A DNA stretch of 51,077 nt, taken from Shigella phage ESh4. The position numbers were made by a program, and so were the translations under genes. Each line of letters opens with the position of its first letter. Within the stretch, counting starts at the first letter, position 1. This document shows positions 6,688 through 50,812 of the stretch, one piece after another. The notes beneath the pieces were generated by a model. It saw nothing but the letters and a program-made list of their open reading frames with translations. It searched no databases and was not told where the DNA came from. The DNA lies in the sequence record ON528718, one strand, 5' to 3'.

Positions 6688-6715
6688 TTGAGTAATGCCA
6701 TTTAGCGTGTATAAT
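6688..6715 (+). promoter_or_regulatory. sigma70-like promoter for rightward block
   Basis: TTGAGT-16bp-TATAAT upstream of ORF 6767. Confidence 0.4.
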
Positions 6716-6755
6716 ACACAATCATTAAATCATCGTTTAACAAAAAATGCTATTG
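6711..6755 (-). promoter_or_regulatory. conserved promoter-like unit (helicase)
   Basis: Sense: AATAGCATTTTTTGTTAAAC + 21 bp + TATTAT; divergent with 6688-6715. Confidence 0.5.
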
Positions 6756-6766: not shown

Positions 6767-7240
6767 ATGAAAGAAAAGCGGATCGCGGTATCAACTGGCA
6801 AGATTGACAAACGCACAATCAATGGCAATAACGGAACTCGACGTGGTAAAGATAAGAAAAAGCGAAAGCGCCCTACAGGATACTATGTTTTAAAAGATGA
6901 AGTGCGCGCCGGGCTAAAAGCGCGACTTGATATCCTTATTGAGTATTACGGAAGTGTGTCAGCAATGGCAAAACGTCTTAACGTTAGCCAGCAAACTGTA
7001 AATCAGTGGCGTGTTCGCGGTATGATTTCAGCCGCTGGCGCTCAAAAGGTGCATAACGATTACAAAAAATATGGCTGCCAAGGCTATCGCGCGTCATTCT
7101 GCCGTCCAGATCTGCGATTTGATTCCAATGGTAAACCGCTCACAAAGAGATGTGATAAGCGTGAAATGTTGCGAGTGGTAAGAATGTCAGATTATGAACC
7201 TAGCGGATTCCTGTATAAACCTGAAAGCACTAATTGCTAA
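6767..7240 (+). CDS. HTH DNA-binding protein (Cro/YdaS-like motif)
   Basis: MAKRLNVSQQTVNQWRVRGMIS helix-turn-helix signature; basic N-terminus; GGAGAA RBS. Confidence 0.55.
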   Translation: MKEKRIAVSTGKIDKRTINGNNGTRRGKDKKKRKRPTGYYVLKDEVRAGLKARLDILIEYYGSVSAMAKRLNVSQQTVNQWRVRGMISAAGAQKVHNDYKKYGCQGYRASFCRPDLRFDSNGKPLTKRCDKREMLRVVRMSDYEPSGFLYKPESTNC

Positions 7241-15620: not shown

Positions 15621-15690
15621 TGATGTTCACTTTTTGAGCTAAATTTAAGCCTCCGCAGATTTGAGAACACTGGAGAACAAAAAGAACAGA

Positions 15691-15733
15691 ATAGCACTTT
15701 TTGCTAAACGCCTACCGTAAGATCATGTATAGT
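15691..15733 (+). promoter_or_regulatory. conserved promoter-like unit (variant TTGCTA)
   Basis: ATAGCACTTTTTGCTAAAC + 21 bp + TATAGT, 32 nt upstream of ORF 15765. Confidence 0.5.
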
Positions 15734-15764
15734 TGCAACTAACAACAACGAAGGAGAAACCAAG

Positions 15765-16981: not shown

Positions 16982-19900
16982 TTACCACACACCAACAACA
17001 ACTCGTCCACCATTGGGAAGGTTTACAGTGATGCCATTGTTATTTATAACAACGGTGTTATTTGTTCCATTAAAAGCAAAACTACCGTTTGAAGCATAAA
17101 GCGATCCTCTAACAGTAACATTGTTCAACTCGGCTGCTCCTGATTTGTTAATCATCCACCCCTGCACTCCAGATACGAAGTTGTTTGATTGAATAACGTT
17201 ACCGATCTTAGCATTTGTGATTGAACCGTCTTTCACCAACAGGCTGTTAATGAATACCTGGTTATTTTCCACCACAAAAGGCAACGTATACGATCCTCCA
17301 GTAGAACTTGTCATGATAGCGAACCTGTTCGCATCAAACAAAATCTGCGAAATAAGGCCGGATGAACCCTGTGAAAGCTGCATCACCATACCAGCGCTGT
17401 ACTTCTGACCGTTATATGTCAATCCCAATTTCATTGCGTACTGTGCGCCAACTCCATTAACGCCAGCCCATGAATCAAGTTTTTCAGTAAGTGCCGATTC
17501 AACATCTCCAAACTTCGCTGTTAATGCTGTATCAGCCGAAACGCGCGCCTCTGTTTCGCTTGCAATCGCCTCCTCAACCCGCGTTAATTGCCCCTGAATA
17601 TCATCATCAATCTGTGATTTCAATTCCTCAATGGCTGTTGCTCGCGTTTCCGATTCTGTTGCAATTGCCTGATCAAGCCTTGTTACTTCGCTAGTTATTT
17701 CCTCGTCAAATTCAGCCTTGAGTTGCGTCATTGCGGTAACGCGCGCCTCAGTTTCATCTGCGATCAACTGTATTGATTGCCTGAATTCGGCTTTGCGTTT
17801 TCCGTTTTCCTTCATCATAATCCTAACGTCTGCATCATTCGCCAATGCGTTTTGAATGATGCTTTGTGCCTGATCCTTGATTTTGTTTGCGCTATCAATG
17901 GCATTCTCTTTCAGATCCTTTCCTGCTTCAGTGTCAAAAATCTTATCAAGAATATCTCCTAAAACAGCCTCCACATCATCTGAAGCCATACCTCTAACAA
18001 AATTAGTCCAGCCGGAGACGTTGCCGATTCTGTCAACGCTGCGGATCCTATACCAGACAACATGACCAGCCGGAAGCGTACCGTGCCAGTATTCATATTG
18101 TGGATACGGGATCAGCGTTAGCAGGCTTGAGTTTTCAGCCGTTCCATCCGGCGACTGGTGAAGCTCAATGTATGCCGTGTCTCCGCTCCCTTCTGGCATA
18201 CCCCACTTAACACGAATGCCAAACACCTCATTGTCGGATGCTGTTAAGTTAACTGGCGCGCCTGGCTCTCCCACCTTACCAGTCAGTGAAGCTGTCACAA
18301 TTCTGGACCACGGAGAAGTAGAACCTGAAGCGGAAACAGATCTGACCCTTACTTGGTAGTTTCCTGAATAAATACCTTCAACCTCAATTTCTTTGTTTGC
18401 AGTCTGTGGTGTATTCAGCCAGTTGCCATCACCTTTTCGCCACTGCATTTCATACAGCGATGCGTAAGGTACTTTATCCCACGACACAACCATTGTTTCA
18501 ACGCTTGCACCCTGGACAATTCGCGAGTATGAGGATATTTGCACGTTTTCCGGTGCTGCCATTTTGTCAGGCTGGACAATTGACGTTGGCCTGTCGTCAA
18601 TGTTTACTCCGTAATCAATCTCGTCGTATTTGTTAGGGTCATATTCAACAGCCGTGATGGAGTATGTAAATTCATCATCACCATCACCTTTGCCGATACT
18701 CGTTACAACGTATTGCTGCAATGCAATATCAGTGCGGTCGATTGCAAAAACCGTGTCAGGTTTAACTTCAAATCCAAACCCAATATTTAGCTCAATGGTT
18801 TTTCCGTCACCGCTTACTTTTGAGATTGTGCGCTTAACTGGCTTTCCGTCCGGCTTGTTGATGATAATGAAATCACCTGGTCTAGCATCAATCTTAAACG
18901 GAACGAACACCTGCAAGCCGGAAACTTCCATCACGCGCCCTGATAGGTTTAACTTCAGGTTGCTGCTGTGAAAGTTGTCAGCAATAGCAATCACATCACC
19001 TATTGATGGGATCATGCCTTCCAGTCCAGTAGCAAAGTTTACCGTAGTGCTGCGCAAGTTGGTTTTTAGTATCCATCGACCTCGCCGATTAGCCTCACTC
19101 CTGCGTGTACATCCGATCGCTGTTATGCTTGTCGGATTGTATCCAAAGCGTAGTGCCGCCTCAGTATCAAACACGCCTTCTACGTCCTGCTGATACATGT
19201 TTTGTTCGTCGTCGAACGTCACATTGCACTGCGTGTACATGCTCTTTTCACTTGCTGTTGTGTACTGGAAATCACCATCAACAACATTGTCATTTGTGAA
19301 GATGTACGACGGATCGCGCGGCTTATCAATGACGATTGACAAGCTCTCCCCATTCCAAAAGCTCATGCCTCTGAATATTGAGCAAATATCACGAATAAGC
19401 TGATAAGCCTCAATCTGACTCTGGATAACAACATCACATAGATAGCGTGGCTCTGTGCCTCCTTTTCCGTCTGGAACTTTCTGATCGCAGTATTGCGCAG
19501 CTTCGTAAAGACTCCACTTATCAACCTGTACACCAAGCTCTCGCTGATCTAATCCGTATCGCTGGTTTGTGATAATGTCATAAAGTACCCACGCCGGATT
19601 GTTAGACCACGCTTTCTTGAACGTACCATTCCATGAGCCGTGATACTCTCGCATTACCGGATCGTAATTGCTCGGAACATTAATCAACTTCCATTTCTTC
19701 TTGATTGAAATGTTAGGGATCTGGTTAGGGAACAACTCGCTGTCAAATTCAACGTATACAAGGCCAGTCAGAGGGTAACGGAATTTTGCATCAATAACCT
19801 CAGCGTAACTTTGTAGCTTAATCAGATCAGTAACGCGAGAAGATGCGCTGTCTGCCGTTACCCTTCTAACCCTAAGCAATACGCGATCATTAAATGCCGG

Positions 19901-26906: not shown

Positions 26907-26952
26907 TGATAGCACTTTTTGTTAAAAGAATTGATTATGAATCGTGTATCAT
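26907..26952 (+). promoter_or_regulatory. conserved promoter-like unit in inverted (antisense) orientation
   Basis: Plus strand ATAGCACTTTTTGTTAAAAG + 22 bp + TATCAT, pointing rightward into the leftward tail operon. Confidence 0.4.
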
Positions 26953-26965
26953 GATTGTACAGTAA

Positions 26966-26989
26966 CAAAAAAAGGGGCGCAACGCCCCT
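26966..26989 (-). terminator. intrinsic terminator after major tail protein gene
   Basis: GGGGCG-CAAC-GCCCC followed on minus strand by TTTTTTT. Confidence 0.7.
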
Positions 26990-26994
26990 TGTGA

Positions 26995-27657
26995 TTATGC
27001 TACTTGAGAAGGTAGGAAGGTGAATCGACCTTTCAGGGATACAGACAGGGAAACAGTTTCCATTTCGTTAACGGTCGTTTGTGGGATCTCGTTAAACGAA
27101 AGGACACCAGCCCAGCAACGCATTTCTTTTGCTTTTGGTACATACATGCGAAGCGCCGTTACAGCGCCTGACTCATCTGCTGAACGCAATAGCGGATAGA
27201 TCGCGTTATCGTATTCGTGCGCAAAAGTGTAGGTAAGAGAAACGGCGCTCTTATAGGTAGGTAACTGCTGTTCCTGGTCGTCTGCCAAACACTGATAAGT
27301 ATAGTATTGCTGTTCGCCGCCGTCCTGCGACAAATCCTGAACGCAAGGGATCTCAGTCCATGCATCAATCTTGGCAAAAGATGCAGTGCCGCCAGTCGGG
27401 AACACGTTCTGATCGGTAGTATCAACACCCTCAAGAGTCACGCTTGTTTCTTCACCGTCAGCCTTTACACGCATAACACGATCAATCAGCTTGCCCCAGG
27501 AGGACGCAGTGATGATTACATAATCGCCTTTCTTGTACGCAGTGCCACCAGATGCAACAGTGAAAACGGGATCTTTAGCGTTTGACACTGCGGTTGCTTG
27601 GATTTCGCTGCCGCGATTGCTCTCAACGAAAATTTGCGATCCATTTGGTAAATGCAT
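26995..27657 (-). CDS. major tail protein (gpV-like)
   Basis: 220 aa ORF upstream of G/GT with its own terminator; AAGGAG RBS. Confidence 0.7.
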   Translation of the reverse strand: MHLPNGSQIFVESNRGSEIQATAVSNAKDPVFTVASGGTAYKKGDYVIITASSWGKLIDRVMRVKADGEETSVTLEGVDTTDQNVFPTGGTASFAKIDAWTEIPCVQDLSQDGGEQQYYTYQCLADDQEQQLPTYKSAVSLTYTFAHEYDNAIYPLLRSADESGAVTALRMYVPKAKEMRCWAGVLSFNEIPQTTVNEMETVSLSVSLKGRFTFLPSQVA

Positions 27658-29647: not shown

Positions 29648-30622
29648 TTAACCTGATTTTTTCAAGCCAGTAATAAGCACTAGCGTAAACGGACGGTAAA
29701 TCGTCAGGCCAGTACATTTTGAAGTGCACGGAACTTTGAAATGCAGATCTTTTGGCTGCGCCGGAAGCATGTTAAATGCTTCTGGAATCTCGATCGACAT
29801 ATTCATTGGGTCTTTCTCATATACCAGGCAACCTTTAGTTCCAGCGCCATCAATATCCTCAAGCTCTGCGATTGAGTCGATGGTGATTCCGCTGTTTTGT
29901 TTCTGGAAGTATTCCAGATAACTTTCAGTGGTGTTTTCCATTCGAACGGAAAGAACCTTGCGCATAGACGGCGGAATCAGGATGTTGGTTGCTCGGTGCT
30001 GACCATTGGTGATGGTCTGAATGGTTTCAATAGCCTTTTCCAGTTCATCAGATGCTGCCTGCGGGAACTTAGTGTTTTCATCAGCACTTAACCAGCCAGT
30101 TGACACGATCTTTGTCAGGTTAGGGTGTTCAAACACCGAAAGAATCTTATGCGGCTTTGAACCCTTAAACACCAGGCGGTTAACCTCCTGATCATGAGCG
30201 TTTTGCGCTGCGTTTGCCTTGCGAGTGGAAAGGCTCTTACCAGTGCGCTGACCAGCCTTGATTTCGTCAATGGAGATCAAGAACGCGTTACCCAGGCGGA
30301 ATACTTTACCGAATTCGCTAGACATCAGCGCGTCAACGGTCGGCAGGTCGTCGGTGTAATCAGCGATAATTTTTGCGTAACCAACTTTGTCAAACATCTG
30401 ATATTCAAAAGTCTTATCAGTATCAGAAAGCTCATTAGTTACAGGGAATACACGAAGCGCTGAACCTGCCGGATATTCTTTCTCGTAAGCATTAGAGCGA
30501 ATCTTATGCAGTTCTTGAGCGGCCCAAATACCCATATCGGACGCATCACCTTTAACGCCGCGAGTAGCCAGATAGCTAGAAACAATATCCGCATCTAGCT
30601 GATCAAATTTTTCTTTTTCCAT
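29648..30622 (-). CDS. major capsid protein
   Basis: 324 aa, flanked by strong promoter-like sequence upstream and terminator downstream; T1-type capsid gene position. Confidence 0.75.
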   Translation of the reverse strand: MEKEKFDQLDADIVSSYLATRGVKGDASDMGIWAAQELHKIRSNAYEKEYPAGSALRVFPVTNELSDTDKTFEYQMFDKVGYAKIIADYTDDLPTVDALMSSEFGKVFRLGNAFLISIDEIKAGQRTGKSLSTRKANAAQNAHDQEVNRLVFKGSKPHKILSVFEHPNLTKIVSTGWLSADENTKFPQAASDELEKAIETIQTITNGQHRATNILIPPSMRKVLSVRMENTTESYLEYFQKQNSGITIDSIAELEDIDGAGTKGCLVYEKDPMNMSIEIPEAFNMLPAQPKDLHFKVPCTSKCTGLTIYRPFTLVLITGLKKSG

Positions 30623-30665: not shown

Positions 30666-30693
30666 ATGATAGCATTTTTTGTTAAACGTGCAA
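30666..30693 (-). promoter_or_regulatory. sigma70-like promoter for major capsid gene (TTGCAC-16-TATCAT)
   Basis: Built from an inverted copy of the conserved element (plus 30669-30687). Confidence 0.45.
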
Positions 30694-30705
30694 CATAATT
30701 TTGTG

Positions 30706-31140
30706 TTATGGGTCAATGCTTACCCCGACAATATATGAATCATGATCAACCTTTACATGTTCGCCAGTAAATATCCAACCAATCAGCAAGTCGCCTTCAC
30801 TGTATGCCACATCTCCATCTTGCGTTACAAATACTTTATCTCCATATTCTGGCGCTTCGCTCTCAGAAGTTAAGCACCAAACATTACCACGACTAACCAC
30901 ATTAACTGGATCGCCCTCCTCATATATGCACGAGTCCGGCGGCCTTACTGCCACTCCAATAACCAGATCACCATTAACACTGACTATTTTATATCCGCTT
31001 GATATATATGATAACCTTACAATCTTACCTGGTGAAATAAACTCGTCTCCACATACAAAAGAACCATTAATCACCATTATTGAAGAATCAACCATGCATC
31101 CTGGCGACTCAGCGCCAACAATGACTGAATAATCACTCAT
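30706..31140 (-). CDS. capsid-associated protein, paralog A (decoration-like)
   Basis: Shares motifs with 31186-31698 (GVAV..., E.G...NV...G.VW.L....AP.[FY]G); same module. Confidence 0.5.
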   Translation of the reverse strand: MSDYSVIVGAESPGCMVDSSIMVINGSFVCGDEFISPGKIVRLSYISSGYKIVSVNGDLVIGVAVRPPDSCIYEEGDPVNVVSRGNVWCLTSESEAPEYGDKVFVTQDGDVAYSEGDLLIGWIFTGEHVKVDHDSYIVGVSIDP

Positions 31141-34939: not shown

Positions 34940-36508
34940 CTATTTGTTCCGCAAACCTGCCAATTTTTTCATTCTTCCTACCGGATCATCTGCCATGTTC
35001 ATTTCAATGTTAACAGCATCAATGATGTTATCAACAATATCATCATGAGGATGGCTATCATCGAATGTAAACGCCGCAACTTCAGCGAGAATCTCAGCCA
35101 GCATAGGATGAGATTCTGGAAGTGCCACGCGTCCGGCGCGCATTACTGGTGCTGCGTCCATTGCGCGAGTAACCTTGTCTTTATCTCGCTGAACTGGATT
35201 GATCTTGATCATGATTTTTTTCGCTGCGCTCTGAATCAAGCCAGTGCCAGATGACTTGTCTTCAACATGAATCCTTCGCAACGTTCCGCATTCTTTATTG
35301 CGCTTCCAGCACTGATTAACGAACGCAACAAAATTCGTCTCAAGGTCCGGTGCTTCCCATTTTCCGCGAACGCCATCAATGAAGTAGACACGATCTTTAT
35401 ACATCCCCCAATAACAGATCACGGAATAGTCGTTAAGCTCACCTGTTTTCTGCGCGGTATCAACCGTGATAAATGTATATTCAAAGCGATCCGGTTTTGG
35501 TAGTGTGCATTTCTCGCTGCTGCCGTAATACTGAAACCACTCTGTTTTAAACACGTTGCCGCCAAGCGCAACAGGCTGTTGCTGATACTGACTAGCGAAC
35601 GTGTACGGATCAGCATTTCGAAGTGCAAGTAATTCCTCCGCGCTTTCCTTAGCAGGCCAGAATGAATAATGAGCAACTCCATCAATCATCACTGGCTTAC
35701 TGGACAAAACATCGCGATCAAACTCAGGCTTTAACCAATCAGGAAGCGTTTCGCGATATTCCTTAGTAACTAGCGCCGGAATACTGACCACCTTAAACTG
35801 GATGCCGCCCATGCCGCCGTTTGTCATGAACCATGTTGAATCATTGACGTGTAGCCGTTGCTGGACCATTACGATTGGCGTTGTGTCCTTCATTCTACGC
35901 GATCGCACCGTGTTCTTTAGGCGCATGTGTCCGGCTTCGCGCTTCACCTTAGAAAGCATATCATCCGGTTTGTCTGGATCATCAAGAACCAGCATACCAG
36001 TAAATCCATCGTCCATGTAGCCGCCACGCAGACCAGTAACCTGACCACCGATAGAGCGCGAGTTAACTTGCAATTTAACCTTGCCACCATCGGTTACAAT
36101 TAAATCCTTTGCGCTCGCCTTCGCCAGTTTTCCAGGCCATAGCTCCTGCCATTCTGGAGAACCAATAATCTCTTTGATGCGGTTGCTATTCTGCTGGACA
36201 AGGCCATCACTAAACGAAAGATTAAGATTTCGCACCTTCTTACTTTTCAATGACGCATAAGGTGACATGTGGATCGAGAATATCTCTGTTTTACCGCTGC
36301 CTGGCGTTATGTTGAAAATTACGTTTTGTGACTCGCCTTTGATGATTTTTTCAACTTCGCTGCATAGGTAGCTGAAATGCCAGTTTCCTAAGAATTTCTG
36401 ACCTTGCAATAATTGAAACCAAATGCGGATCATCTTTTCGAATGAATATTCGCTCATTTCCTTAACGGCGCGTTTCTGCGCCGCTGTTAAGTCTTCCCAA
36501 ATCAGCAT
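34940..36508 (-). CDS. terL: terminase large subunit
   Basis: Walker A-like ITPGSGKT, Walker B-like LVLDDPD, C-terminal nuclease-like acidic residues; 522 aa. Confidence 0.85.
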   Translation of the reverse strand: MLIWEDLTAAQKRAVKEMSEYSFEKMIRIWFQLLQGQKFLGNWHFSYLCSEVEKIIKGESQNVIFNITPGSGKTEIFSIHMSPYASLKSKKVRNLNLSFSDGLVQQNSNRIKEIIGSPEWQELWPGKLAKASAKDLIVTDGGKVKLQVNSRSIGGQVTGLRGGYMDDGFTGMLVLDDPDKPDDMLSKVKREAGHMRLKNTVRSRRMKDTTPIVMVQQRLHVNDSTWFMTNGGMGGIQFKVVSIPALVTKEYRETLPDWLKPEFDRDVLSSKPVMIDGVAHYSFWPAKESAEELLALRNADPYTFASQYQQQPVALGGNVFKTEWFQYYGSSEKCTLPKPDRFEYTFITVDTAQKTGELNDYSVICYWGMYKDRVYFIDGVRGKWEAPDLETNFVAFVNQCWKRNKECGTLRRIHVEDKSSGTGLIQSAAKKIMIKINPVQRDKDKVTRAMDAAPVMRAGRVALPESHPMLAEILAEVAAFTFDDSHPHDDIVDNIIDAVNIEMNMADDPVGRMKKLAGLRNK

Positions 36509-39125: not shown

Positions 39126-39157
39126 TTTGATTTCCTCTGTTTCGCTTCAATGAGGAC

Positions 39158-39202
39158 ACTTTAACAAATGCCCTCGCGGAAGTTTTAACAAAAAGTGCTA
39201 TT
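39158..39202 (-). promoter_or_regulatory. conserved promoter-like unit
   Basis: Sense AATAGCACTTTTTGTTAAAAC + 22 bp + TAAAGT; upstream gene stop TAA abuts element. Confidence 0.45.
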
Positions 39203-40502: not shown

Positions 40503-40548
40503 ATTATAGCGAGGCATTGCGCCCCGCTTTTAGCAATTCGTGCTATTT
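40503..40548 (-). promoter_or_regulatory. conserved promoter-like unit (variant)
   Basis: Sense AAATAGCACGAATTGCTAAAAG + 22 bp + TATAAT; kinase stop TAG inside element. Confidence 0.55.
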
Positions 40549-41773: not shown

Positions 41774-41804
41774 GATTTAATCCTCGTTTGTTGTAGATGG
41801 GCTT

Positions 41805-41851
41805 ACTATACCGAAAGCCCGATAATCTGTTTTTGCAAAAAGTGCTATTTT
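41805..41851 (-). promoter_or_regulatory. conserved promoter-like unit (variant TTGCAA)
   Basis: Sense AAAATAGCACTTTTTGCAAAAAC + 22 bp + TATAGT; upstream gene stop TAG inside element. Confidence 0.5.
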
Positions 41852-42384
41852 AATTCATCCACGCCGTGCGATTGGATGTGATTATGTGGCTTGTCGTATT
41901 CCGTGACCTGATAGGTTGTGATTCCCAGGCTGCGGAAGTGCTTAACCACGTTCGGCGAATCATCAAAAGCGCACACAATGTTTTCCAGTCCGATAGCGCG
42001 CAAGACTTCTTCTTTGATGATTGTGTCTTTGCGATTGTCTTCCTTGCGGCGCATGATTAACGCATCGTACTTGATGCCGTTTTCGTTAAGCCATTTGCAG
42101 GTGTCCTCCATCACTTCATCGCTACGTCCGGTCAGGATAACCACGGCAAATCCTGACATCCACAATCCGTTAACCACTGCAACCGTGCTTTTAATCGGCG
42201 AATCTCCAACAGCCGCTTTATTGAACTCAGACCAGCTTTCTGTAAGGTGTAAATCTTCTGTCGGCAGCAGGTGCAAGCGATGCGTTCCGTCTGATAACGT
42301 TCCGTCCAGGTCAACGATAACAATCGGCTTGCTCGTGGAAAAATGGTATTTGCTGCCCCAAAGTTCAAATTCGTATTTTTTCAT
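41845..42384 (-). CDS. HAD-family phosphatase (polynucleotide kinase 3'-phosphatase-like)
   Basis: HAD motif I VIVDLDGTL, later SGR and RKD...KEE and DD signature resembling T4 Pnkp phosphatase domain; ATG 42384 with GGAG RBS. Confidence 0.6.
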   Translation of the reverse strand: MKKYEFELWGSKYHFSTSKPIVIVDLDGTLSDGTHRLHLLPTEDLHLTESWSEFNKAAVGDSPIKSTVAVVNGLWMSGFAVVILTGRSDEVMEDTCKWLNENGIKYDALIMRRKEDNRKDTIIKEEVLRAIGLENIVCAFDDSPNVVKHFRSLGITTYQVTEYDKPHNHIQSHGVDELK

Positions 42385-42784: not shown

Positions 42785-42814
42785 CGTTTTATCCCCTTCG
42801 TTGAAAGTGAGGCC

Positions 42815-42859
42815 ATTATACCTGGCCCCGCATTTGAGTTTTAACAATTCGTGCTATTT
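42815..42859 (-). promoter_or_regulatory. conserved promoter-like unit (variant)
   Basis: Sense AAATAGCACGAATTGTTAAAAC + 21 bp + TATAAT with GGCC...GGCC dyad around -10. Confidence 0.55.
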
Positions 42860-43748: not shown

Positions 43749-43803
43749 GGTTATTTCTCCTGATTGGTTTAACTGGGCGACGCCGTGCCGCCCTATGTGA
43801 TTT

Positions 43804-43849
43804 ATTATGCCTGGTTATCGTTTTTGAGTTTTAACAAAAAATGCTATTT
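43804..43849 (-). promoter_or_regulatory. conserved promoter-like unit
   Basis: Sense AAATAGCATTTTTTGTTAAAAC + 22 bp + CATAAT. Confidence 0.55.
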
Positions 43850-44048: not shown

Positions 44049-44234
44049 TTAAAAGAAAGCTACATAGTTTGCAATGCCTTTGGCGTCGTCGTTTGGCATT
44101 GCCTTTACAGCCAGGTCATAACCTGATTCTACCTTCTGCTTTGCTGTTTCTTCGTTGTAACCCCAGATAACTAGGATTTTAACTACGTTTTCTTTGTTCA
44201 GGACTTTAAGGTCTTTGGTGATGCGACGTGCCAT
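44049..44234 (-). CDS. hypothetical protein (61 aa, trimmed)
   Basis: ATG 44234 with GAGGAAAACAAAA RBS downstream of unit 44268-44313 (track M is TTG). Confidence 0.45.
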   Translation of the reverse strand: MARRITKDLKVLNKENVVKILVIWGYNEETAKQKVESGYDLAVKAMPNDDAKGIANYVAFF

Positions 44235-44267
44235 TTTTGTTTTCCTCAATCTCGTTTCGATGAGGCT

Positions 44268-44313
44268 ATTATGCCAGGCTTTGCACCTGGCGTTTTAACA
44301 AAAAGTGCTATTT
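44268..44313 (-). promoter_or_regulatory. conserved promoter-like unit with CCAGG/CCTGG hairpin
   Basis: Sense AAATAGCACTTTTTGTTAAAAC-GCCAGGTGCAAAGCCTGG-CATAAT, near-identical to unit 48478-48524. Confidence 0.55.
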
Positions 44314-44317
44314 CCGC

Positions 44318-44566
44318 TCAGAGTCCAACATTCTCCTCATCGAATGCAGCCACAAGCCTTGCAAATACAGGATCTCCAGGCATTTCAATTTCAATGACCT
44401 TGATTTCCCTCCCGCATAGGCTTGTGTAAATCTCGCTCGCATCAGATAGCATGTCGCTAAACTCCTGCGCGGTGATTTCACATGCGGTCAAGTGGAAATC
44501 AACCGGTTTGTTAAAGCCCACCTCATCAATTTTTTCCATCAGCTCATCAAGAGTAAGTTTGCTCAT
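44318..44566 (-). CDS. hypothetical protein (82 aa, trimmed)
   Basis: ATG 44566 with GAGGAG RBS, overlapping stop of upstream ORF. Confidence 0.45.
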   Translation of the reverse strand: MSKLTLDELMEKIDEVGFNKPVDFHLTACEITAQEFSDMLSDASEIYTSLCGREIKVIEIEMPGDPVFARLVAAFDEENVGL

Positions 44567-44567
44567 T

Positions 44568-45038
44568 TTATTTCTCCTCATCGTTAAGGTATGTTTCTTT
44601 AATGATCGCGTGAAAGTCTGCGATCGCCTTAGCAAGTGTTTCATATTCATCTGGCGAGTAGTTCGCTAGGTTTGGTGAGACTTTAAGCATCGACTCAGCA
44701 ACCTGGCGTTTTGCTTTCGCTACAGCCTTCTCAAGCGCGGCCTTGTTGTATACCCTGCGATTAGGCGCACTAACAATCGCCACATCAAAGTAATTTTCCC
44801 CGAAATATTTGTGATCAGGGCCGTAAGGTTTCTTTGAAACTGAAACCCTCCCTTTCTCCGCCACTTCTGGAACTCGCCCCATAATCTGACGCAGATATGA
44901 TCCGGCATTGCTGGCTGACTTCTTGCCCTCCAGGTGCTGCCTTACCCATCTTTCAGGTATCTGGATCGATTCGTGCAATCCAGATGCGAGCGCAGTAGCA
45001 ACCTTGCGAAGCTCATTTGTAAATACAGATTCACTCAT
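44568..45038 (-). CDS. hypothetical protein (156 aa), first gene of leftward early operon
   Basis: ORF with GAGAGGG RBS downstream of TTGACA-17-AATAAT promoter. Confidence 0.5.
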   Translation of the reverse strand: MSESVFTNELRKVATALASGLHESIQIPERWVRQHLEGKKSASNAGSYLRQIMGRVPEVAEKGRVSVSKKPYGPDHKYFGENYFDVAIVSAPNRRVYNKAALEKAVAKAKRQVAESMLKVSPNLANYSPDEYETLAKAIADFHAIIKETYLNDEEK

Positions 45039-45069
45039 GCTTTATACCCTCTCGTGATTCAGTGGCTGC

Positions 45070-45098
45070 ATTATTATTTACCATTCCTGGCGTGTCAA
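45070..45098 (-). promoter_or_regulatory. sigma70-like early promoter (TTGACA-17-AATAAT)
   Basis: Perfect -35 TTGACA on minus strand, 17-bp spacer, AATAAT; 30 nt upstream of ORF 44568-45038. Confidence 0.5.
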
Positions 45099-45229
45099 AT
45101 GTTTTTTATTGTTATTGGCAGTTTTTCAATGTTGTCTTTTCATAGCACAACAAGATTCTCGTTTTTCTCCTTATAAATCAATGTTATTTTGGCGTGTTAT
45201 CTAAAAATGCGCGGATTCGCCCCTACCCC

Positions 45230-45370
45230 ATATATACATACCTGCCAACACACAACCACATACAATCACCAAAAATACATCAGACATCAATATGACCACA
45301 TAACATACATAACAGATAGTAATTTATAGATACATATAAATAAATAATCCTTATTTTTTAGTATGTTATA
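45230..45370. repeat. low-complexity CA-rich / TA-rich tract
   Basis: ccaacacacaaccacatacaatcacc...cataacatacataacagatag...; shares the 13-mer acacaaccacata with region 15430-15620. Confidence 0.6.
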
Positions 45371-45422
45371 TGGATTTCTCTTGTTATTTTTTGTTATGCG
45401 ATTCCACGCCGGAATAACACGC

Positions 45423-45460
45423 ATAACAGCGATAACAGAAGATAACAGATGTGCGCGCCA
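45423..45460. repeat. ATAACAG direct repeats (3-4 copies)
   Basis: cATAACAGcgATAACAGaagATAACAGatg; iteron-like. Confidence 0.5.
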
Positions 45461-45579
45461 GGATTGCCGAAAAGGACGCAAGAGGACCGCGTTTATCTAT
45501 CCCCTCCACACAAAAAGTTAATCAACTGATTAAAATTGATCAAACTCAAAGTCTCACAATCCAGGTGATCGCGAATGAG

Positions 45580-45619
45580 TTATTCCTGTTATTCCTGATT
45601 AATGGAATAGATGGAATAA
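45580..45619. promoter_or_regulatory. operator-like array of four TTATTCC half-sites
   Basis: TTATTCCTG TTATTCCTG attaat GGAATAGAT GGAATAAT: two direct repeats and two inverted copies with 9-bp period, just upstream of promoter unit 45632-45677. Confidence 0.5.
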
Positions 45620-45631
45620 TCGCCAGTTGAG

Positions 45632-45677
45632 AAATAGCACTTTTTGTTAAAACTGAATCCGCCTGATCGGGTACATT
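45632..45677 (+). promoter_or_regulatory. conserved promoter-like unit (first rightward gene)
   Basis: AAATAGCACTTTTTGTTAAAAC + 22 bp + TACATT, 40 nt upstream of ORF 45717. Confidence 0.5.
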
Positions 45678-45716
45678 ACACACATCGAAACGAGACACCC
45701 ATCAGGAGACGGTAAG

Positions 45717-45989
45717 GTGAACATCAGCAAAACCACTTTCAACTTTGCAAAGCGTCACGGTCTGGATCTGACTGTTGAAGACTTCGGCGATGTTCTGCAA
45801 CTCTGCATTTGGGAAGCGGATAACGATTGCGAGTGGCTTTGCTCTTATCGTATCAATTACGATTGCTTAACCTGGCACGGTAATATCTATCTGCCGCAAG
45901 AAGTGAAAGAGGAATTGCCAGCTACCATCAATAATGAAGTGTTTTTGCGCAAAGTCCTGAAGTTTATTGCTGATGAGATCAAGAAATGA
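45717..45989 (+). CDS. hypothetical protein (90 aa)
   Basis: ORF with AGGAGACGG RBS, GTG start. Confidence 0.5.
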   Translation: MNISKTTFNFAKRHGLDLTVEDFGDVLQLCIWEADNDCEWLCSYRINYDCLTWHGNIYLPQEVKEELPATINNEVFLRKVLKFIADEIKK

Positions 45990-46231
45990 TTAGTGAAGTG
46001 GATTTTGAACTTGCCGAGGCCCAGGTAAGGGCCAAAAAGATGGGTTTGCGTATACTGACGAAAACCGTGGAGTTTCCGTCGATGCCGTTCGCATCATTCC
46101 ATAAAGTGACGGTGTTCAGTAGCAAACGCGAGTTTAACGCGCTAATCCCTGCTGGTGATGATAAGCGCATGGCAAAATTTATTAACGAGTCCTGTGATGT
46201 TCTGATGGCAGTTAAACACGATCAACAATGA
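45986..46231 (+). CDS. hypothetical protein (81 aa)
   Basis: ORF track, ATGA overlap with upstream gene. Confidence 0.5.
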   Translation: MISEVDFELAEAQVRAKKMGLRILTKTVEFPSMPFASFHKVTVFSSKREFNALIPAGDDKRMAKFINESCDVLMAVKHDQQ

Positions 46232-46244
46232 AGGAGAAATAAAG

Positions 46245-46511
46245 ATGGCGCGAATCAATGCACCTATTCCAGTTAAGCGCAAAGCACGACTGCTTAACAA
46301 TGGATGTTACGCCCTGCGGCCTGATTTTAAAAAACGCACCTTTCCGGTTATCGTCAACGTGTCGCACGTAAGCCGTAGCGGGAATCTGGCCTTTGTTAAC
46401 GGTGAAGATCTGGCGGCGCTTGGATTCTATGGCGGTATTTACGGCGAACCGCTCGGATTCTGGCTTGTAAATCCGTCAACTGGAGAACGTGAAATCGAAT
46501 TCCTGGACTAA
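46245..46511 (+). CDS. hypothetical protein (88 aa)
   Basis: ORF with GGAGAAATAAAG RBS; stop TAA abuts conserved element. Confidence 0.5.
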   Translation: MARINAPIPVKRKARLLNNGCYALRPDFKKRTFPVIVNVSHVSRSGNLAFVNGEDLAALGFYGGIYGEPLGFWLVNPSTGEREIEFLD

Positions 46512-46555
46512 ATAGCATTTTTTGTTAAAACCGATGCGCCTATGATTGGTATATT
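46510..46555 (+). promoter_or_regulatory. conserved promoter-like unit
   Basis: AAATAGCATTTTTTGTTAAAAC + 22 bp + TATATT; -10 lies in loop of CGATGCGC...GCGCATCG dyad. Confidence 0.55.
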
Positions 46556-46586
46556 ATGCGCATCGACAACGAACGAGGATTTAAAA

Positions 46587-46751
46587 ATGGAAACACAGGT
46601 TGATGTTAAAGTTATTAAGCGCGACAAATCTCACGAGAAAGGAATCTTTAAGAAAGGCACTATCATCACCATTGATCTTGAGGATATGGAGGCTTACCAC
46701 TCAGGTCTAACTTGGAACGTGCGCAAATGTGAAAACGGCCTGTTCAAGTAA
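46587..46751 (+). CDS. hypothetical protein (54 aa, trimmed)
   Basis: ATG 46587 with GAGGA RBS; track start 46542 would lie inside the promoter unit. Confidence 0.4.
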   Translation: METQVDVKVIKRDKSHEKGIFKKGTIITIDLEDMEAYHSGLTWNVRKCENGLFK

Positions 46752-46783
46752 AATGGCTTTGAAACATACATGGAGATCATCTA

Positions 46784-46984
46784 ATGGCAAAGAAATTAAA
46801 ACTTAAATGCGTAGAAACTTATAACTCAACTTGGAAATTCACGCGAGGGAAAGAATACCCAATAATGGGAAATCTCAAAGAAGATCCTCATTTAATTTCA
46901 GATAATTGTTTAATGGAATGCAACGATGGATATATCGGTGCTGGTGTTCCAGGCCATAAATTTAAGCTGAAAAATAAGAAATGA
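46784..46984 (+). CDS. hypothetical protein (66 aa)
   Basis: ORF track; Lys-rich. Confidence 0.45.
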   Translation: MAKKLKLKCVETYNSTWKFTRGKEYPIMGNLKEDPHLISDNCLMECNDGYIGAGVPGHKFKLKNKK

Positions 46985-47080
46985 GGCTATTTATTTTCAA
47001 AAACGCTTGGATGGTGGCGGTTGCAAATGACCATTATGGTGGAGACGGCAAGCGAGCAAATCGCCATAGCTATTTCAACT

Positions 47081-47124
47081 AATAGCACGAATTGCTAAAC
47101 AATATTTCTCAAACCTGGTATAGT
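47081..47124 (+). promoter_or_regulatory. conserved promoter-like unit (variant)
   Basis: AATAGCACGAATTGCTAAAC + 21 bp + TATAGT. Confidence 0.5.
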
Positions 47125-47154
47125 TACCACGCCAAATATAATGAGGATTGCATA

Positions 47155-47382
47155 ATGAAAGCTAAAGTCACTAACATCATGCACACTGTTGATGCACATC
47201 ACCGCGTCGCCATTAAGATGGATAAATCTTGCGGAATCAACCAGTTAACCATCACGAGTGGTAAAGGTGTGTTTGTTGTTGGCTCACATCCAGGTAGTAA
47301 AATCCGCAAATATACACGCGAAGAATTGATTAAATTGCTTGAAGAAAACAGCATGTTTATTGAAAGCTGGAAAGCTGTATGA
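47155..47382 (+). CDS. hypothetical protein (75 aa, trimmed)
   Basis: ATG 47155 with GAGGA RBS downstream of unit 47081-47124. Confidence 0.45.
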   Translation: MKAKVTNIMHTVDAHHRVAIKMDKSCGINQLTITSGKGVFVVGSHPGSKIRKYTREELIKLLEENSMFIESWKAV

Positions 47383-47389
47383 TTAATCA

Positions 47390-47417
47390 ATGGGAGATTT
47401 CCGCCTCCCATTTTATC
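47390..47417 (+). terminator. possible hairpin terminator/attenuator
   Basis: ATGGGAG-N8-CTCCCAT followed by TTTATC. Confidence 0.35.
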
Positions 47418-47429
47418 AATGGGGAATAA

Positions 47430-47543
47430 ATGATTAAGGCGCTTGATATTTTATTTGGTGTTATGATTGGCCTTGTGGGTTTGCTTGTTTTTACTGCCGG
47501 GCTTGTAATTATTATTGCTGTTATTAAGGAGTTTATTAAATGA
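47430..47543 (+). CDS. small membrane protein (37 aa, below track cutoff)
   Basis: ATG 47430 with GGGGAATAA RBS; single TMD (ILFGVMIGLVGLLVFTAGLVIIIAVI); stop overlaps next start. Confidence 0.35.
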   Translation: MIKALDILFGVMIGLVGLLVFTAGLVIIIAVIKEFIK

Positions 47544-47764
47544 GTCAAGACGGTTTTTTTGAGCGACTGCAAAAAGCGGAAGATGCCGGACTGAATAAAG
47601 AGGCTGCGCTTGAAGTGGCATATAAGATCAGGACGCTTGATGATGCGCTTGGTGAAATGGATATGGATCATGAATGTGGCGCTGCGTTTGCAGATCCAAC
47701 GATGATTGTTAATGATTGTGGATGCAATTTTGATCCTAACTGTGCGCGATGCTTTCCGTTTTGA
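47540..47764 (+). CDS. hypothetical protein (74 aa, Cys-rich C-terminus)
   Basis: ORF with AAGGAG RBS; HECG...CGC...CARC motifs. Confidence 0.45.
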   Translation: MSQDGFFERLQKAEDAGLNKEAALEVAYKIRTLDDALGEMDMDHECGAAFADPTMIVNDCGCNFDPNCARCFPF

Positions 47765-47773
47765 GGTGATGAA

Positions 47774-48484
47774 ATGTATAAAGGTTTAATTTTCTCTTTG
47801 TTTGATGGATCTGGTAAAGCCGTTAAAGATTGGGCCGACGCTGGATATAAGTGCATTTGCTTTAATGCTGACGGTGGCGATCATGGTGATTACCAGTCAG
47901 TGCGCATACAGCATGAGAATATCGAATACGTTAACTTCTGGATTGATGAAAGATTTTACCACCGCGCGCGCTGGGAGGAATGGGGTATTCCTGACTTTAT
48001 TATGGCATTTCCTCCTTGCACACAATTAGCAAATAGCGGATCTCGTCATTGGGCTAAAAAGCGCGTGGAAAATCCTAACTTCCAGGATGAGGCCGCAGAC
48101 ACTTGCAAAATTGCGGCGCATATCGCTGATTATTTCGGTGTTCCGTACATGATAGAGAATCCTGTAGGAAAGTTATCAACGTTATGGCGGAAGCCTGATT
48201 ATACTTTCCATCCGTGCGATTATGCTGGCTATCTGCCGGAAGATGATAAGCATCCCGACTTCCCTGATATTATTCCGGCGCGGGATCGCTACTTTAAGAA
48301 AACATGCCTTTGGACTGGAAACGGATTTGTTATTCCTCCGCGCGCAACAATCCTTCCTAAAGAGGGCGACAAGGATAATCCTGGCTGGGCCAAAACTGGC
48401 GGAAAATCATCTCGCACAAAGATGATTCGCTCCCTCACACCGCGCGGTTTTGCTCGCGCCGTCTTTGAAGTAAACGCAAAATAG
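47774..48484 (+). CDS. DNA cytosine-5 methyltransferase-like protein (compact)
   Basis: Motif I-like LFDGSG, motif IV-like FPPCTQLANSG (Pro-Cys), motif VI-like MIENPVG; 236 aa; stop TAG inside conserved element. Confidence 0.5.
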   Translation: MYKGLIFSLFDGSGKAVKDWADAGYKCICFNADGGDHGDYQSVRIQHENIEYVNFWIDERFYHRARWEEWGIPDFIMAFPPCTQLANSGSRHWAKKRVENPNFQDEAADTCKIAAHIADYFGVPYMIENPVGKLSTLWRKPDYTFHPCDYAGYLPEDDKHPDFPDIIPARDRYFKKTCLWTGNGFVIPPRATILPKEGDKDNPGWAKTGGKSSRTKMIRSLTPRGFARAVFEVNAK

Positions 48485-48524
48485 CACTTTTTGTTAAAAG
48501 CCAGGTGTAAAAGCCTGGCATAAT
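48478..48524 (+). promoter_or_regulatory. conserved promoter-like unit with CCAGG/CCTGG hairpin
   Basis: AAATAGCACTTTTTGTTAAAAG-CCAGGTGTAAAAGCCTGG-CATAAT; 31 nt upstream of ORF 48556. Confidence 0.55.
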
Positions 48525-48555: not shown

Positions 48556-48942
48556 ATGAAAGTTATCTGCAATAAAACCAACGTTTTGATGAACGGTCGT
48601 TATAAAGCTGTATACGAAAAAATTGCTGGTAGCGATGATGTGATCGAGTTGGAACAATTCCAGGTAAAGAGCATTACAAAGGGTAGCAAGTGGCAAAACG
48701 CTGTTGAGTCTGACTATCGTCATATCAAGACAAAAACAATTAAATGCACCTTTGTAGATCACAAGATCCCGTGTAAAAAGCATTTCAAAGAAGGAAAGCG
48801 TTACCAGATTGAGCAAGGTCGCGCTCTTGGTGCTGTTGCTGGTTATGTTTTTGATGAAGCTGGCGACCGCTGGACGCTATACCGCGAAGAAGTAGGATTT
48901 TCCGCTGGTGGCTGTCATTTGTTTGAGGCTATGTATAAGTGA
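48556..48942 (+). CDS. hypothetical protein (128 aa)
   Basis: ORF with AAAGGAGGAATAAACG RBS. Confidence 0.5.
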   Translation: MKVICNKTNVLMNGRYKAVYEKIAGSDDVIELEQFQVKSITKGSKWQNAVESDYRHIKTKTIKCTFVDHKIPCKKHFKEGKRYQIEQGRALGAVAGYVFDEAGDRWTLYREEVGFSAGGCHLFEAMYK

Positions 48943-49160
48943 TCAAGACTGAATATCGCTATAAGGTGACTTATTCAGCAACAAAAACCTTCAAGCCTGG
49001 CGATATAGTCAGGCCAATAAAGAAAACGACGGTTGGATGGCTGATTGGTCTTTCTTACCACAAATCACTTTATTTTGATTTTGCTGATTCCGTAACCGCG
49101 CATTGCCATAGCGCAAGGGAACCAGAAAAAATCTTGGTTAGCATAGAGCGGATCAAATAG
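48939..49160 (+). CDS. hypothetical protein (73 aa)
   Basis: ORF track; stop TAG inside conserved element. Confidence 0.45.
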   Translation: MIKTEYRYKVTYSATKTFKPGDIVRPIKKTTVGWLIGLSYHKSLYFDFADSVTAHCHSAREPEKILVSIERIK

Positions 49161-49200
49161 CATTTTTTGTTAAATGCGGGTAGCATTGTTGCGGTATTAT
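49155..49200 (+). promoter_or_regulatory. conserved promoter-like unit
   Basis: AAATAGCATTTTTTGTTAAATG + 22 bp + TATTAT. Confidence 0.55.
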
Positions 49201-49228
49201 TGCCGCATCAAAAAAGGAGTTATCATCA

Positions 49229-50812
49229 ATGAATTTTTCGTTTGAAACCAATAAACTAACACCAAAACAAATTATCGAATTAGCTGATGCACAAGGATTG
49301 TCTCCGGTGCGCGTGTCCATTCAGGCAAACGGATACCGTCAATCGTCCAGCTTTTGGGGTGAGGTTAATGATGTTAATAACGGAAACGATCGCTACCCTG
49401 TAATTTCTCTTGGCAATGATGTTGATATTGTTGGAAAGTTAGCGCGCAACATTGCTCGCTCTGTTCAATTCCCTGAATCATCGGCCTATATGCATTTTAT
49501 CGGCTGCGTGTCTGCTGCAATGCTTGGGCGATTCACGGTTGAGTATCACGGAACGGATCAGCCAACCGCTCTTTATGTTGTCACAAGTCAGCCTCCTTCA
49601 ACTGGTAAATCTGCCGTTAACAGCCTGGCTCTTGCTCCAATGGTTGCAGAAGTGGAAAGAATTAACGATCAGCGAAAGAAGGAAAGAAAAAAGATTCAGG
49701 CAAAGTTGGCAGGTCTTGCAAAAGAGATGAAAAGCGAGCGCTCCGGCGCTGATATGGAATCTCTGTACCAGGAGAAAGAAGATCTGGAAGAAAAACTGGA
49801 AAAGATGTGTGACATCGTTTTCCCTGTGTCCGACACCACGCCGGAAGGACTTGCAAGAATCAACAATCGCCAGGGTAACTTTGCTGTGATTTCAGACGAG
49901 GCAACAAGTATTAACAGCCTTTTAGGTCTGACATATGCCAATAGCGAACGTAAAACCAACAGCGAACTTGTTCTGAAAGCATGGGATCATGGTCATGTTT
50001 CTATAGCTCGTGCAAACGCTGACAACAATATGAGTTTTAAAGCTCTTGGCTGCATGGCGGTAATTGCCCAGGATGAAACAATCAATGCCATCATGGATGC
50101 AGGATCGCGAGGTATTGGTGTAAGTGAGCGTTATTTGCTTGTGCGTGAAGAATCATTTTTAGGTCGTCGAAAGTTTGTTGATGATAACGGTGATTCGACT
50201 TATGAGCCTGTTGATGGAGAACTGAAAAGCCAATATTTTAAGCTGATCCATAACATCATGAGTGAATCAAACATCCAGCTTAAGATCAGTAAATCAGCAA
50301 TGCGAGTTCTTAACATGGCTCGTCAGGAGATGGAGCCGCACCTTGCTGATGGAGGAAAGTATTCGCATACAATGCTGCGCGGTGCGCTTGGCAAAATGGA
50401 TAAGCAGGTGATCAGGATTGCTTCGGTTTTGCACACTATCCGCAATTGGTTTAATCCTGGTGGATACCCTCAGAAGTCGAAAGAGATTGAAGTTGAAACC
50501 GTTCAGGAAGCACTGTTGATGTTTAGCGAGTTGAGCAAAACATACATTAGCGCCGCCAACGCTTCTGGCTATGCTGGTGATGATGCTGAGATGGGTAAAC
50601 TAATCGAGATTATCACTCGACACGGTAAGGCTAACAAGGGGATCTTGAATGTGCGCGCCATATATGAGGCTGCACGAAAAGTTAAGCCGTTTGTTGGTCA
50701 GGCTGGCGTAATGAAGCGTATGGAAACGCAACTGCTGCCGATGCTTGAAGAAAGAAATTATATTTGTGTGATTAATGGCGTTGTTTTTGTAAATCCAACA
50801 TTGCTGGGGTAA
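49229..50812 (+). CDS. P-loop NTPase (DUF3987-like; possible replication/helicase-associated ATPase)
   Basis: Walker A-like VVTSQPPSTGKSAV and Walker B-like NFAVISDEAT; 527 aa; AAAAAAGGAG RBS. Confidence 0.5.
   Translation: MNFSFETNKLTPKQIIELADAQGLSPVRVSIQANGYRQSSSFWGEVNDVNNGNDRYPVISLGNDVDIVGKLARNIARSVQFPESSAYMHFIGCVSAAMLGRFTVEYHGTDQPTALYVVTSQPPSTGKSAVNSLALAPMVAEVERINDQRKKERKKIQAKLAGLAKEMKSERSGADMESLYQEKEDLEEKLEKMCDIVFPVSDTTPEGLARINNRQGNFAVISDEATSINSLLGLTYANSERKTNSELVLKAWDHGHVSIARANADNNMSFKALGCMAVIAQDETINAIMDAGSRGIGVSERYLLVREESFLGRRKFVDDNGDSTYEPVDGELKSQYFKLIHNIMSESNIQLKISKSAMRVLNMARQEMEPHLADGGKYSHTMLRGALGKMDKQVIRIASVLHTIRNWFNPGGYPQKSKEIEVETVQEALLMFSELSKTYISAANASGYAGDDAEMGKLIEIITRHGKANKGILNVRAIYEAARKVKPFVGQAGVMKRMETQLLPMLEERNYICVINGVVFVNPTLLG

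Follow-up and report, generated by a model that had tools for sequence, protein, structure and literature searches.

Sense-selected hairpins nested in predicted extended −10 promoter cassettes of a T1-like coliphage are linked to co-directional upstream genes

The genome of phage TLS contains a 21-nt direct repeat, aaATAGCACnnnTTGnTAAAA, that is oriented with transcription and lies ~76 nt upstream of start codons, and the 21-nt direct repeat is also found in T1, Rtp, and Rogue1 (PMC11447400). The 2024 TLS paper left the function of the repeat open between a stoperator, an enhancer, and an UP-like element (PMC11447400). Here, we analyzed Shigella phage ESh4 (sequence record ON528718), a nearly complete 51 kb T1-like (Drexlerviridae, Hanrivervirus-like) coliphage genome; the whole 51,077-nt stretch is referred to as the window. 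In the window, a 20-nt motif, AATAGCACTTTTTGTTAAAA, forms the shared 5′ part of promoter units that occur in 16 copies, and many of these units carry a hairpin in the promoter core. We show that the hairpins are non-random, selected on the sense strand, covarying, and linked to upstream co-directional open reading frames (ORFs), and we consider it probable that they are sense intercistronic RNA stem-loops that act as 3′-end barriers or leaky terminators for read-through transcripts.

The window units are members of the Drexlerviridae direct-repeat family with the consensus aaATAGCACnnnTTGnTAAAA, and they are like the T1-like direct repeats in sequence, in orientation, in the ~76 nt to the start codon, and in copy number (16–21 per genome). 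The fixed 19-nt spacing to an extended −10 element, the stop codon embedded in the repeat, and the hairpins nested in the promoter core are not described in the TLS paper (PMC11447400), which was the sole match in a literature search for T1-like transcriptomes or for the motif sequence.

The hairpins also invite comparison with several other described elements. Like rho-independent terminators, they have a GC-rich stem with a stable tetraloop right after a stop codon and are preceded by an A-tract and followed by AU-rich sequence; unlike these, most lack a U-tract, and the hairpin lies inside the next promoter rather than before it. The same comparison extends to bidirectional terminators and to the 'transcripton' arrangement proposed for T1, and two T1 hairpins and one in TLS are annotated as terminators. 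E. coli REP elements and the C(UUCG)G hairpins of phage T4 intercistronic regions are mRNA-stabilizing stem-loops. They share with the hairpins described here stability without a U-tract, a position between co-transcribed genes, frequent extra-stable tetraloops, and strand-specific selection, whereas the hairpins of this phage are nested at fixed positions in the core of a predicted promoter. Early promoters of phage N4 likewise combine a short GC-rich hairpin with a repeated phage promoter, but the N4 hairpin (5–7 bp stem, 3-nt loop) is obligatory in every promoter and needs the virion RNA polymerase, while here loops are 4–16 nt long and first-in-block promoters have no hairpin; no phage RNA polymerase was found among the annotated genes of relatives or in the TLS analysis.

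The window has 15 sequences that match AATAGCACTTTTTGTTAAAA with ≤3 mismatches, where 0.01 would be expected, and a 16th when 4 are allowed. Our comparison set consisted of ~1 Mb of related DNA from IMG/VR with 399 unique units (~400–460 unique units across analyses), and the figures that follow for related phages refer to this set. The repeat itself is near-invariant and spans approximately −51 to −32 of the promoter, and the spacer between repeat and −10 is 19 nt in 343 of the 399 units (86%). A position matrix gave G−14 in 86% and T−15 in 43% of units, followed by a TATAAT-like hexamer with A−11 in 87% and T−7 in 88%. Downstream of the −10 lie a C-rich discriminator, a C−1/A+1 start, and an A/C-rich leader with a Shine-Dalgarno sequence; the distance from the start of the repeat to the ATG has its mode at 75–79 nt and is mostly 73–84 nt in the window. 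Judged by these features, the cassettes are predicted extended −10 promoters. A first-pass annotation of this DNA had taken the units for promoter cassettes, and the extended −10, the fixed 19-nt distance, the C−1/A+1, the leader, and the ATG ~76 nt from the repeat across the 399 units bear this out.

In G−14, T−15, and the TATAAT-like hexamer, the units are like extended −10 or class II activator-type sigma-70 promoters, with which they also share the lack of a usable −35 at 17 bp and an upstream site centered at approximately −41.5. Unlike in such promoters, the upstream element is a 20-nt non-palindromic, near-invariant sequence. Because the TTG of its TTG(T/C)TA lies 22 bp from the −10 hexamer, the repeat is not a canonical −35 element.

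Spacer hairpins are present in 5 of the 16 window units (3197, 4217, 40528, 44293, and 48480), with stabilities of −11.4 to −14.5 kcal/mol and z of −3.0 to −4.2. A minimum free energy of ≤−11, reached by these 5 of 16 units, is found in 0.6% of genomic 27-mers and 1–12% of GC-matched 27-mers. In five more units (39183, 41830, 42839, 46511, and 49156), the −10 is enclosed or overlapped by a hairpin of −10.5 to −17.5 kcal/mol, and these hairpins are conserved in orthologs. The ten cassettes, each with its direct repeat (DR), are:

44268–44312, minus strand: focal cassette 1 (unit 44293), with the DR at 44293–44312, the spacer hairpin GCCAGGTGCAAAGCCTGGC at 44273–44291, and the −10 CATAAT at 44268–44273.
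48480–48524, plus strand: focal cassette 2 (unit 48480), with the DR at 48480–48499, the spacer hairpin GCCAGGTGTAAAAGCCTGGC at 48500–48519, and the −10 CATAAT at 48519–48524.
3172–3216, minus strand: spacer-hairpin cassette 3197, with the DR at 3197–3216, the hairpin GCCCGGCCTTGTGTCGGGC at 3177–3195 containing a sense G·T, and the −10 CATAAT at 3172–3177.
4192–4236, minus strand: spacer-hairpin cassette 4217, with the DR at 4217–4236, the hairpin GGCGCGAAGGATTGCGCC at 4197–4214, and the −10 CATAAT at 4192–4197.
40503–40547, minus strand: spacer-hairpin cassette 40528, with the DR at 40528–40547, the hairpin (A)GCGGGGCGCAATGCCTCGC(T) at 40508–40528 containing a sense G·T wobble, and the −10 TATAAT at 40503–40508.
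39145–39202, minus strand: cassette 39183 with a −10-enclosing hairpin, with the DR at 39183–39202, the hairpin at 39145–39182 (core GAGGGCA...TGTCCTC; −17.5 kcal/mol sense, −11.1 antisense), and the −10 TAAAGT at 39158–39163.
41795–41849, minus strand: cassette 41830 with a −10-overlapping hairpin, with the DR at 41830–41849, the hairpin at 41795–41828 (core GGGCTT...AAGCCC), and the −10 TATAGT at 41805–41810.
42807–42858, minus strand: cassette 42839 with a −10-enclosing hairpin, with the DR at 42839–42858 and the hairpin GCGGGGCCAGGTATAATGGCCTCAC at 42807–42831.
46511–46565, plus strand: cassette 46511 with a −10-enclosing hairpin, with the DR at 46511–46530, the hairpin at 46532–46565 (GATGCGC...GCGCATC), and the −10 TATATT at 46550–46555.
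49156–49211, plus strand: cassette 49156 with the −10 as hairpin apex, with the DR at 49156–49175, the hairpin at 49186–49211, and the −10 TATTAT at 49195–49200; it drives the helicase ORF 49229–50812.

The unit sequences quoted in the first-pass annotation were found where it had placed them. It had recognized the stems in the focal units and in the units at 3172 and 4192 as well as the dyads round the −10 at 46511 (+) and 42839 (−), all of which are real, and its view that the same DNA doubles as a structured nucleic-acid element agrees with our analysis. The spacer hairpin of 40528 (−) was absent from its list, and dyads of the same kind lie round the −10 at 39183 (−), 41830 (−), and 49156 (+); the hairpin feature is more general than was stated there.

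In related phages, a spacer hairpin of ≤−9 kcal/mol is present in 108 of the 399 unique units. When the remaining units were folded over −33 to +11, 56% reached −10 kcal/mol versus 9% of shuffles in which the −10 was held fixed, reversing the result obtained with a narrower segment and a strict loop rule, in which dyads enclosing the −10 were not enriched (3.8% versus 4.7%). The enrichment over background is 6–30-fold. A core hairpin is found in ~70% of units and absent from 30%, and whether a unit has one is a property of the orthologous promoter position. Preferred end points of the 3′ arm are −12 and −1/+1 to +9, and the loop is 4–16 nt long. The window has no Rfam match at the gathering score, and a tRNA scan was also empty. 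Spacer-hairpin units differ from the others in T−15 (13% versus 55%) and in A−8 (94% versus 43%; CATAAT/TATTAT against TATAGT), suggesting two promoter sub-classes.

Several lines of evidence reveal which strand folds. Among 109 spacer hairpins, the sense strand is the more stable in 87 and the antisense strand in 18, and all five window spacer hairpins are more stable as sense. Sense tetraloops include 35 GNRA and 6 UNCG loops of 57, while antisense tetraloops include none of 39. Based on a strand-symmetric definition of internal transition mismatches, the ratio of G·T to A·C is 47:1 in spacer hairpins (17:1 when counted by 27 stem families) and 115:25 in hairpins round the −10. Because sense G·T pairs are A·C mismatches on the antisense strand, that strand is disfavored. 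The stems also covary: 83 distinct hairpin sequences occupy the same place, with complementarity but not sequence being kept. In a fixed-register subset, five of eight pairs vary on both sides, giving 26 compensatory cells versus 4.4 in shuffles (0/500) and a covariation score of 0.456 versus 0.05–0.16 for slid partners; at pair 18-25, 17 sequences have G·U and 8 have G-C. Orthologs of unit 3197 display a C-G to A-T swap (in locus L009) and a G·T to A-T change. RNAalifold returned no consensus structure for 52 mixed-register hairpin units because the stems begin at different offsets.

The presence of a hairpin follows the upstream gene. The stop codon of the upstream gene is in most units part of the repeat or directly adjacent to it and, therefore, the intergenic space is wholly taken by the cassette. 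In 198 of 288 units, the stop codon is provided by the TAG of AATAGCAC, and in most others the last base(s) of TAA or TGA double as the first A(s) of the repeat. Among the focal units, the TAG of the 48480 DR (48482–48484) is the stop codon of ORF 47774–48484, and this unit drives ORF 48556–48942 (+); unit 44293 drives ORF 44049–44249 (−), and the upstream ORF 44318–44650 (−) stops 6 nt before its DR. Spacer hairpins are found in 97 of 288 units that abut the stop of a co-directional ORF versus 4 of 99 units without one (p = 1.4e-10). For any core hairpin, the corresponding figures are 74% versus 39%, and with one vote per orthologue cluster 76% versus 32% of 192 clusters (p = 3.6e-7). Because a cassette's own transcripts are predicted to start downstream of the hairpin, a sense RNA hairpin could be present only in RNA that was initiated further upstream. 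In the window, 10 of 11–12 internal units have a hairpin versus 0 of 4–5 first-in-block or reverse-oriented units (6735, 15690, 26908, 30668, and arguably 45633). The cassettes without a core hairpin are:

43804–43848, minus strand: internal cassette 43829, with the DR at 43829–43848 and the −10 CATAAT at 43804–43809.
45633–45677, plus strand: cassette at the head of the rightward early block, arguably internal, with no significant hairpin.
6710–6754, minus strand: cassette 6735 without a hairpin, first promoter of the leftward helicase/replication block, no co-directional upstream gene.
15690–15734, plus strand: cassette without a hairpin, driving a small ORF at the position of cor in relatives, no co-directional upstream gene.
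26908–26952, plus strand: reverse-oriented cassette without a core hairpin, in a gap in the late module.
30668–30712, plus strand: reverse-oriented cassette without a core hairpin, in a gap in the late module.

Unit 43829, the only clearly internal one that lacks a core hairpin, has a GC-rich hairpin, GGGCGgcacggcgtCGCCC (43770–43800, −), ~10–30 nt into its own transcript.

The two focal units, 44293 (−) and 48480 (+), have the same motif sequence and the same −10, CATAAT. As the first-pass annotation had pointed out, they share a CCAGG...CCTGG stem (GCCAGG...CCTGGC in both) immediately before CATAAT on opposite strands; their 19-nt spacers are two substitutions and a 1-nt indel apart, and a repeat search recovered the pair as a 62-nt inverted repeat with 81% ungapped identity. 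As sense, the hairpins have −13.4 and −13.7 kcal/mol (z −3.5 and −4.2), and 0 of 200 shuffles were as good. Orthologs of 48480 retain the GCCAGG hairpin, one with a sense-compatible T·G, while orthologs of 44293 have two alleles between near-identical flanks, either the GCCAGG hairpin or an unrelated weak hairpin, ctcgatcggtgcgatttgg. A GCCAGG-type stem occurs at a third promoter position, in the L009 ortholog of 3197. Because the units share 20 upstream bases, the −10, and the leader, patch exchange or cassette duplication is the simplest account of the 45-bp near-identity, which would reflect cassette homology (duplication, patch exchange, or gene conversion); nothing suggests an interaction or a special paired function of the two copies. 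In locus L123 (IMGVR_UViG_2974632794_000001), positions 3550–4312 contain two tandem 48480-type cassettes plus the start of the gene, and these copies have a re-paired stem (GCGGTGTAAAAGCACGGC) and lack 1 nt of the repeat. ORF 47774–48484 (+) is labeled 'Dcm-like C5 cytosine methyltransferase' or 'site-specific DNA methylase' in the annotation of relatives and has no Pfam match at E≤0.01.

Some members of the family have the form of terminators. In the GenBank record of T1, the sense rho-independent terminator 41978–42000 is the hairpin in the spacer of the unit at 41955, and a second one, 35930–35969, encloses the −10 of unit 35935–35996 and is followed by T6. TLS terminator T62 starts directly after DR12. 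One subfamily has the structure AAAA-CCCGC-UUCG-GCGGG-UUUUGUAUUAU, in which the U-tract runs into the extended −10. Other terminator-like sites in the early region are not in excess (11 found versus 12 expected).

If the hairpins are sense intercistronic RNA stem-loops, they would fit into the following scheme. Each cassette would be an early/middle promoter consisting of the 20-nt repeat at approximately −51 to −32, a rigid 19-nt spacer, the extended −10, the C−1/A+1 start, and the A/C-rich leader with its Shine-Dalgarno sequence. With genes so tightly packed that the upstream one usually ends within the repeat, only the bases of the spacer and of the discriminator are left to vary freely between the genes, and evolution would have placed the stem-loop either wholly in the spacer (3′ arm to −12) or round the −10 (3′ arm near −1 to +9). 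The hairpin would mark and protect the upstream message at its 3′ end, either by blocking 3′ exonucleases or as a processing boundary; the minority with a U-rich tail would be true intrinsic terminators; and the overlapping promoter would re-initiate the next gene. A boundary or stability stem-loop that grades into true terminators where U-tailed is what we regard as the most economical reading, and we infer that the folding molecule is RNA and that its function is 3′-end formation or stabilization.

Several observations weigh against this interpretation. Only 21 of 320 hairpins (~7%) have at least 5 T in the 8-nt sense tail, leaving ~93% without a U-tract; hairpins round the −10 have U-depleted tails, with 0.72 T of 8, and tails of hairpin units are no more T-rich than those of hairpin-less units (p=0.13). 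Because the tails of hairpin units are not T-enriched, canonical termination cannot be the general function. The sense tails of the focal units, AUAAUAGC and AUAAUCAC, are without a U-tract and do not have the form of a canonical terminator, and a consensus terminator scan flagged no window unit hairpin on either strand. The unit sets are phylogenetically related, a bias that cluster-level tests lessen but do not abolish. The fixed-register alignment was pre-selected for predicted folding and, therefore, its percentage of paired cells is no independent evidence. GNRA-type loops and G·T pairs are tolerated in single-stranded DNA too, so that a DNA hairpin in the non-template strand is compatible with the data. 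Finally, the transcription start sites, the read-through, and the 3′ ends in the scheme are all predicted.

The same sense-strand and upstream-gene evidence would also be expected if the hairpin served the downstream message, either as a protective 5′ stem-loop after cleavage in the AU-rich repeat or by insulating the leader and ribosome-binding site in read-through RNA. Many hairpins round the −10 end at −1/+1, so that what follows the hairpin in the RNA is the same as the primary transcript, and the tails are A-rich and unstructured. However, the spacer hairpins stop at −12 rather than at the start site, and a minority of hairpins are clear terminators, and we consider this alternative unlikely.

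It is distinctly unlikely, in our assessment, that the hairpin is a DNA-level element, i.e. an inverted repeat that extrudes as a hairpin or cruciform or alters spacer mechanics, thereby tuning promoter strength or the response to supercoiling or presenting a single-stranded −10 to sigma-70, as in N4. The position of the hairpins within the core promoter is indeed fixed, their 3′ arm reaching to −12 or close to −1; hairpin units lose T−15 and have a better −10 hexamer; and C-GAAA-G loops are very stable in DNA as well. A promoter-intrinsic role does not, however, predict that hairpins are largely absent from units without an upstream co-directional gene. Moreover, UNCG loops are enriched, accounting for 6 of 57 tetraloops, and such loops confer stability on RNA and not on DNA; the template-strand arm has A·C mismatches, which disfavor cruciforms; and the −31 to −12 region stays unmelted in open complexes. 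A related and very unlikely variant would have the hairpin couple read-through to the embedded promoter, in that a non-template hairpin forming behind the polymerase presents the −10, as a loop or a −12 fork junction, to sigma-70. If true, upstream transcription would activate re-initiation at internal promoters, in a host-polymerase analog of the N4 hairpin promoters.

The first-pass annotation had suggested antisense termination, in which the hairpin and the repeat complement (GUUUUAAC) would stop read-through on the antisense strand and the sequence would double as promoter spacer for sense transcription. The perfect focal stems fold in antisense too (−12.1 and −11.0 kcal/mol) and are then followed by 4 U, and the order of A-tract, hairpin, and AU-rich sequence recalls a bidirectional terminator. 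The T-rich GTTTTAAC that was noted after each hairpin on the opposite strand is present, but its supposed connection to the hairpins falls away: it is merely the complement of the invariant repeat 3′ end, TTAAAA[C], is found in every unit including the hairpin-less ones, and provides only 4 U. The terminator scan did not flag the sites, and the hairpins round the −10 are not next to this U-run, those that enclose the −10 having none beside them on either strand. In addition, the strand preference (87 versus 18), the sense-only GNRA and UNCG loops, and the G·T:A·C ratios of 47:1 and 115:25 all point to the sense strand, hairpin presence follows the co-directional upstream gene and not convergent transcription, and no antisense promoter faces the focal units at close range. 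We therefore regard antisense termination as highly improbable.

That the palindromes are operators for a dimeric regulator, with the GCCAGG/CCTGGC half-sites co-regulating the focal pair, possibly via Dcm (CCWGG) methylation, is extremely unlikely: although the focal half-sites are shared and are CCWGG sites, the gene labeled 'Dcm-like' methyltransferase in relatives ends inside unit 48480, and the window encodes helix-turn-helix (HTH) proteins, the 83 distinct stems keep complementarity rather than sequence, the wobbles are strand-asymmetric, the arm spacing is variable with loops of 4–16 nt, CCWGG is not avoided (111 sites versus ~67 expected), and the methyltransferase-like ORF has no Pfam match. 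A role of the CCAGG/CCTGG arms as regulatory Dcm sites was also dropped given that CCWGG is not depleted, is rare in the hairpins of relatives, and the 'Dcm-like' ORF has no Pfam hit.

With respect to the wider genome, the window has ~92–95% identity to Hanrivervirus phages, and the region of the focal units has 91–94% identity to the Hanrivervirus/T1-like phages pSf-1, damhaus, JakobBernoulli, and vojen. Based on annotated relatives, the early small genes diverge at ~45.3 kb, reaching ~38.5 kb on the left and ~51 kb on the right; the late structural module occupies the minus strand at ~16–38.5 kb, and replication and lysis genes lie at 1–15 kb. Canonical sigma-70 sites in the early region number 12 versus 23.7 in shuffles, and the consensus scan detected just one unit. 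Among canonical sigma-70 promoters in the early region, the best (45070–45098, −; TTGACA-17-AATAAT, 11/12) lies at the head of the leftward early block; it is without the 20-nt repeat and so may be the true immediate-early promoter. The repeat was also considered as a sigma-54 −24/−12 element on its likeness to TGGCAC-N5-TTGC and rejected, since it has AG where GG is essential, is 2 nt too short in its spacing, and is followed by a conserved −10. A search for a repeat-binding protein among the window proteins yielded only a Cro/YdaS-like HTH at 6767–7240, which was uninformative; this plus-strand 'transcriptional regulator' adjoins the primase gene, its HTH match is weak and sub-threshold, and it is a candidate repeat binder. 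From +1 to approximately +25, the leader keeps its composition and partly its sequence (C-A-T/C-C-G-A-A-A-C-G-A...GGAG, A/C-rich, U/G-poor), and this shared composition suggests that an unstructured, translation-enhancing leader may be common to all cassettes.

The reverse-oriented cassettes (26908–26990, + and 30668–30712, +) are antisense within the minus-strand late module and adjoin a major-tail-size ORF (26995–27657) and a capsid-size ORF (29648–30622). The start site of unit 26908 faces an A7/T7-flanked hairpin, GGGGCGcaaCGCCCC (~26971–26990), and so the unit could yield only a ~45-nt RNA or an antisense RNA. Reverse-oriented repeats lie at comparable places in T1 (15026–15087 and 18790–18851, minus strand) and in TLS (DR7 beside T35).

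The repeat has been known since the sequencing of the T1 genome, and our analysis places it at −51 to −32 of a predicted extended −10 promoter. Terminators, stabilizer hairpins, and overlapping signals are already known; what is new is their nesting and its regularity, which is of moderate rather than fundamental interest. A promoter with a nested boundary hairpin would provide ready-made parts for synthetic biology as well as an aid to the annotation of Drexlerviridae. For the phages themselves, the cassettes offer a testable model of transcription punctuation in a compact genome, in which an end structure and a restart for each small gene would be accommodated in ~45 bp.

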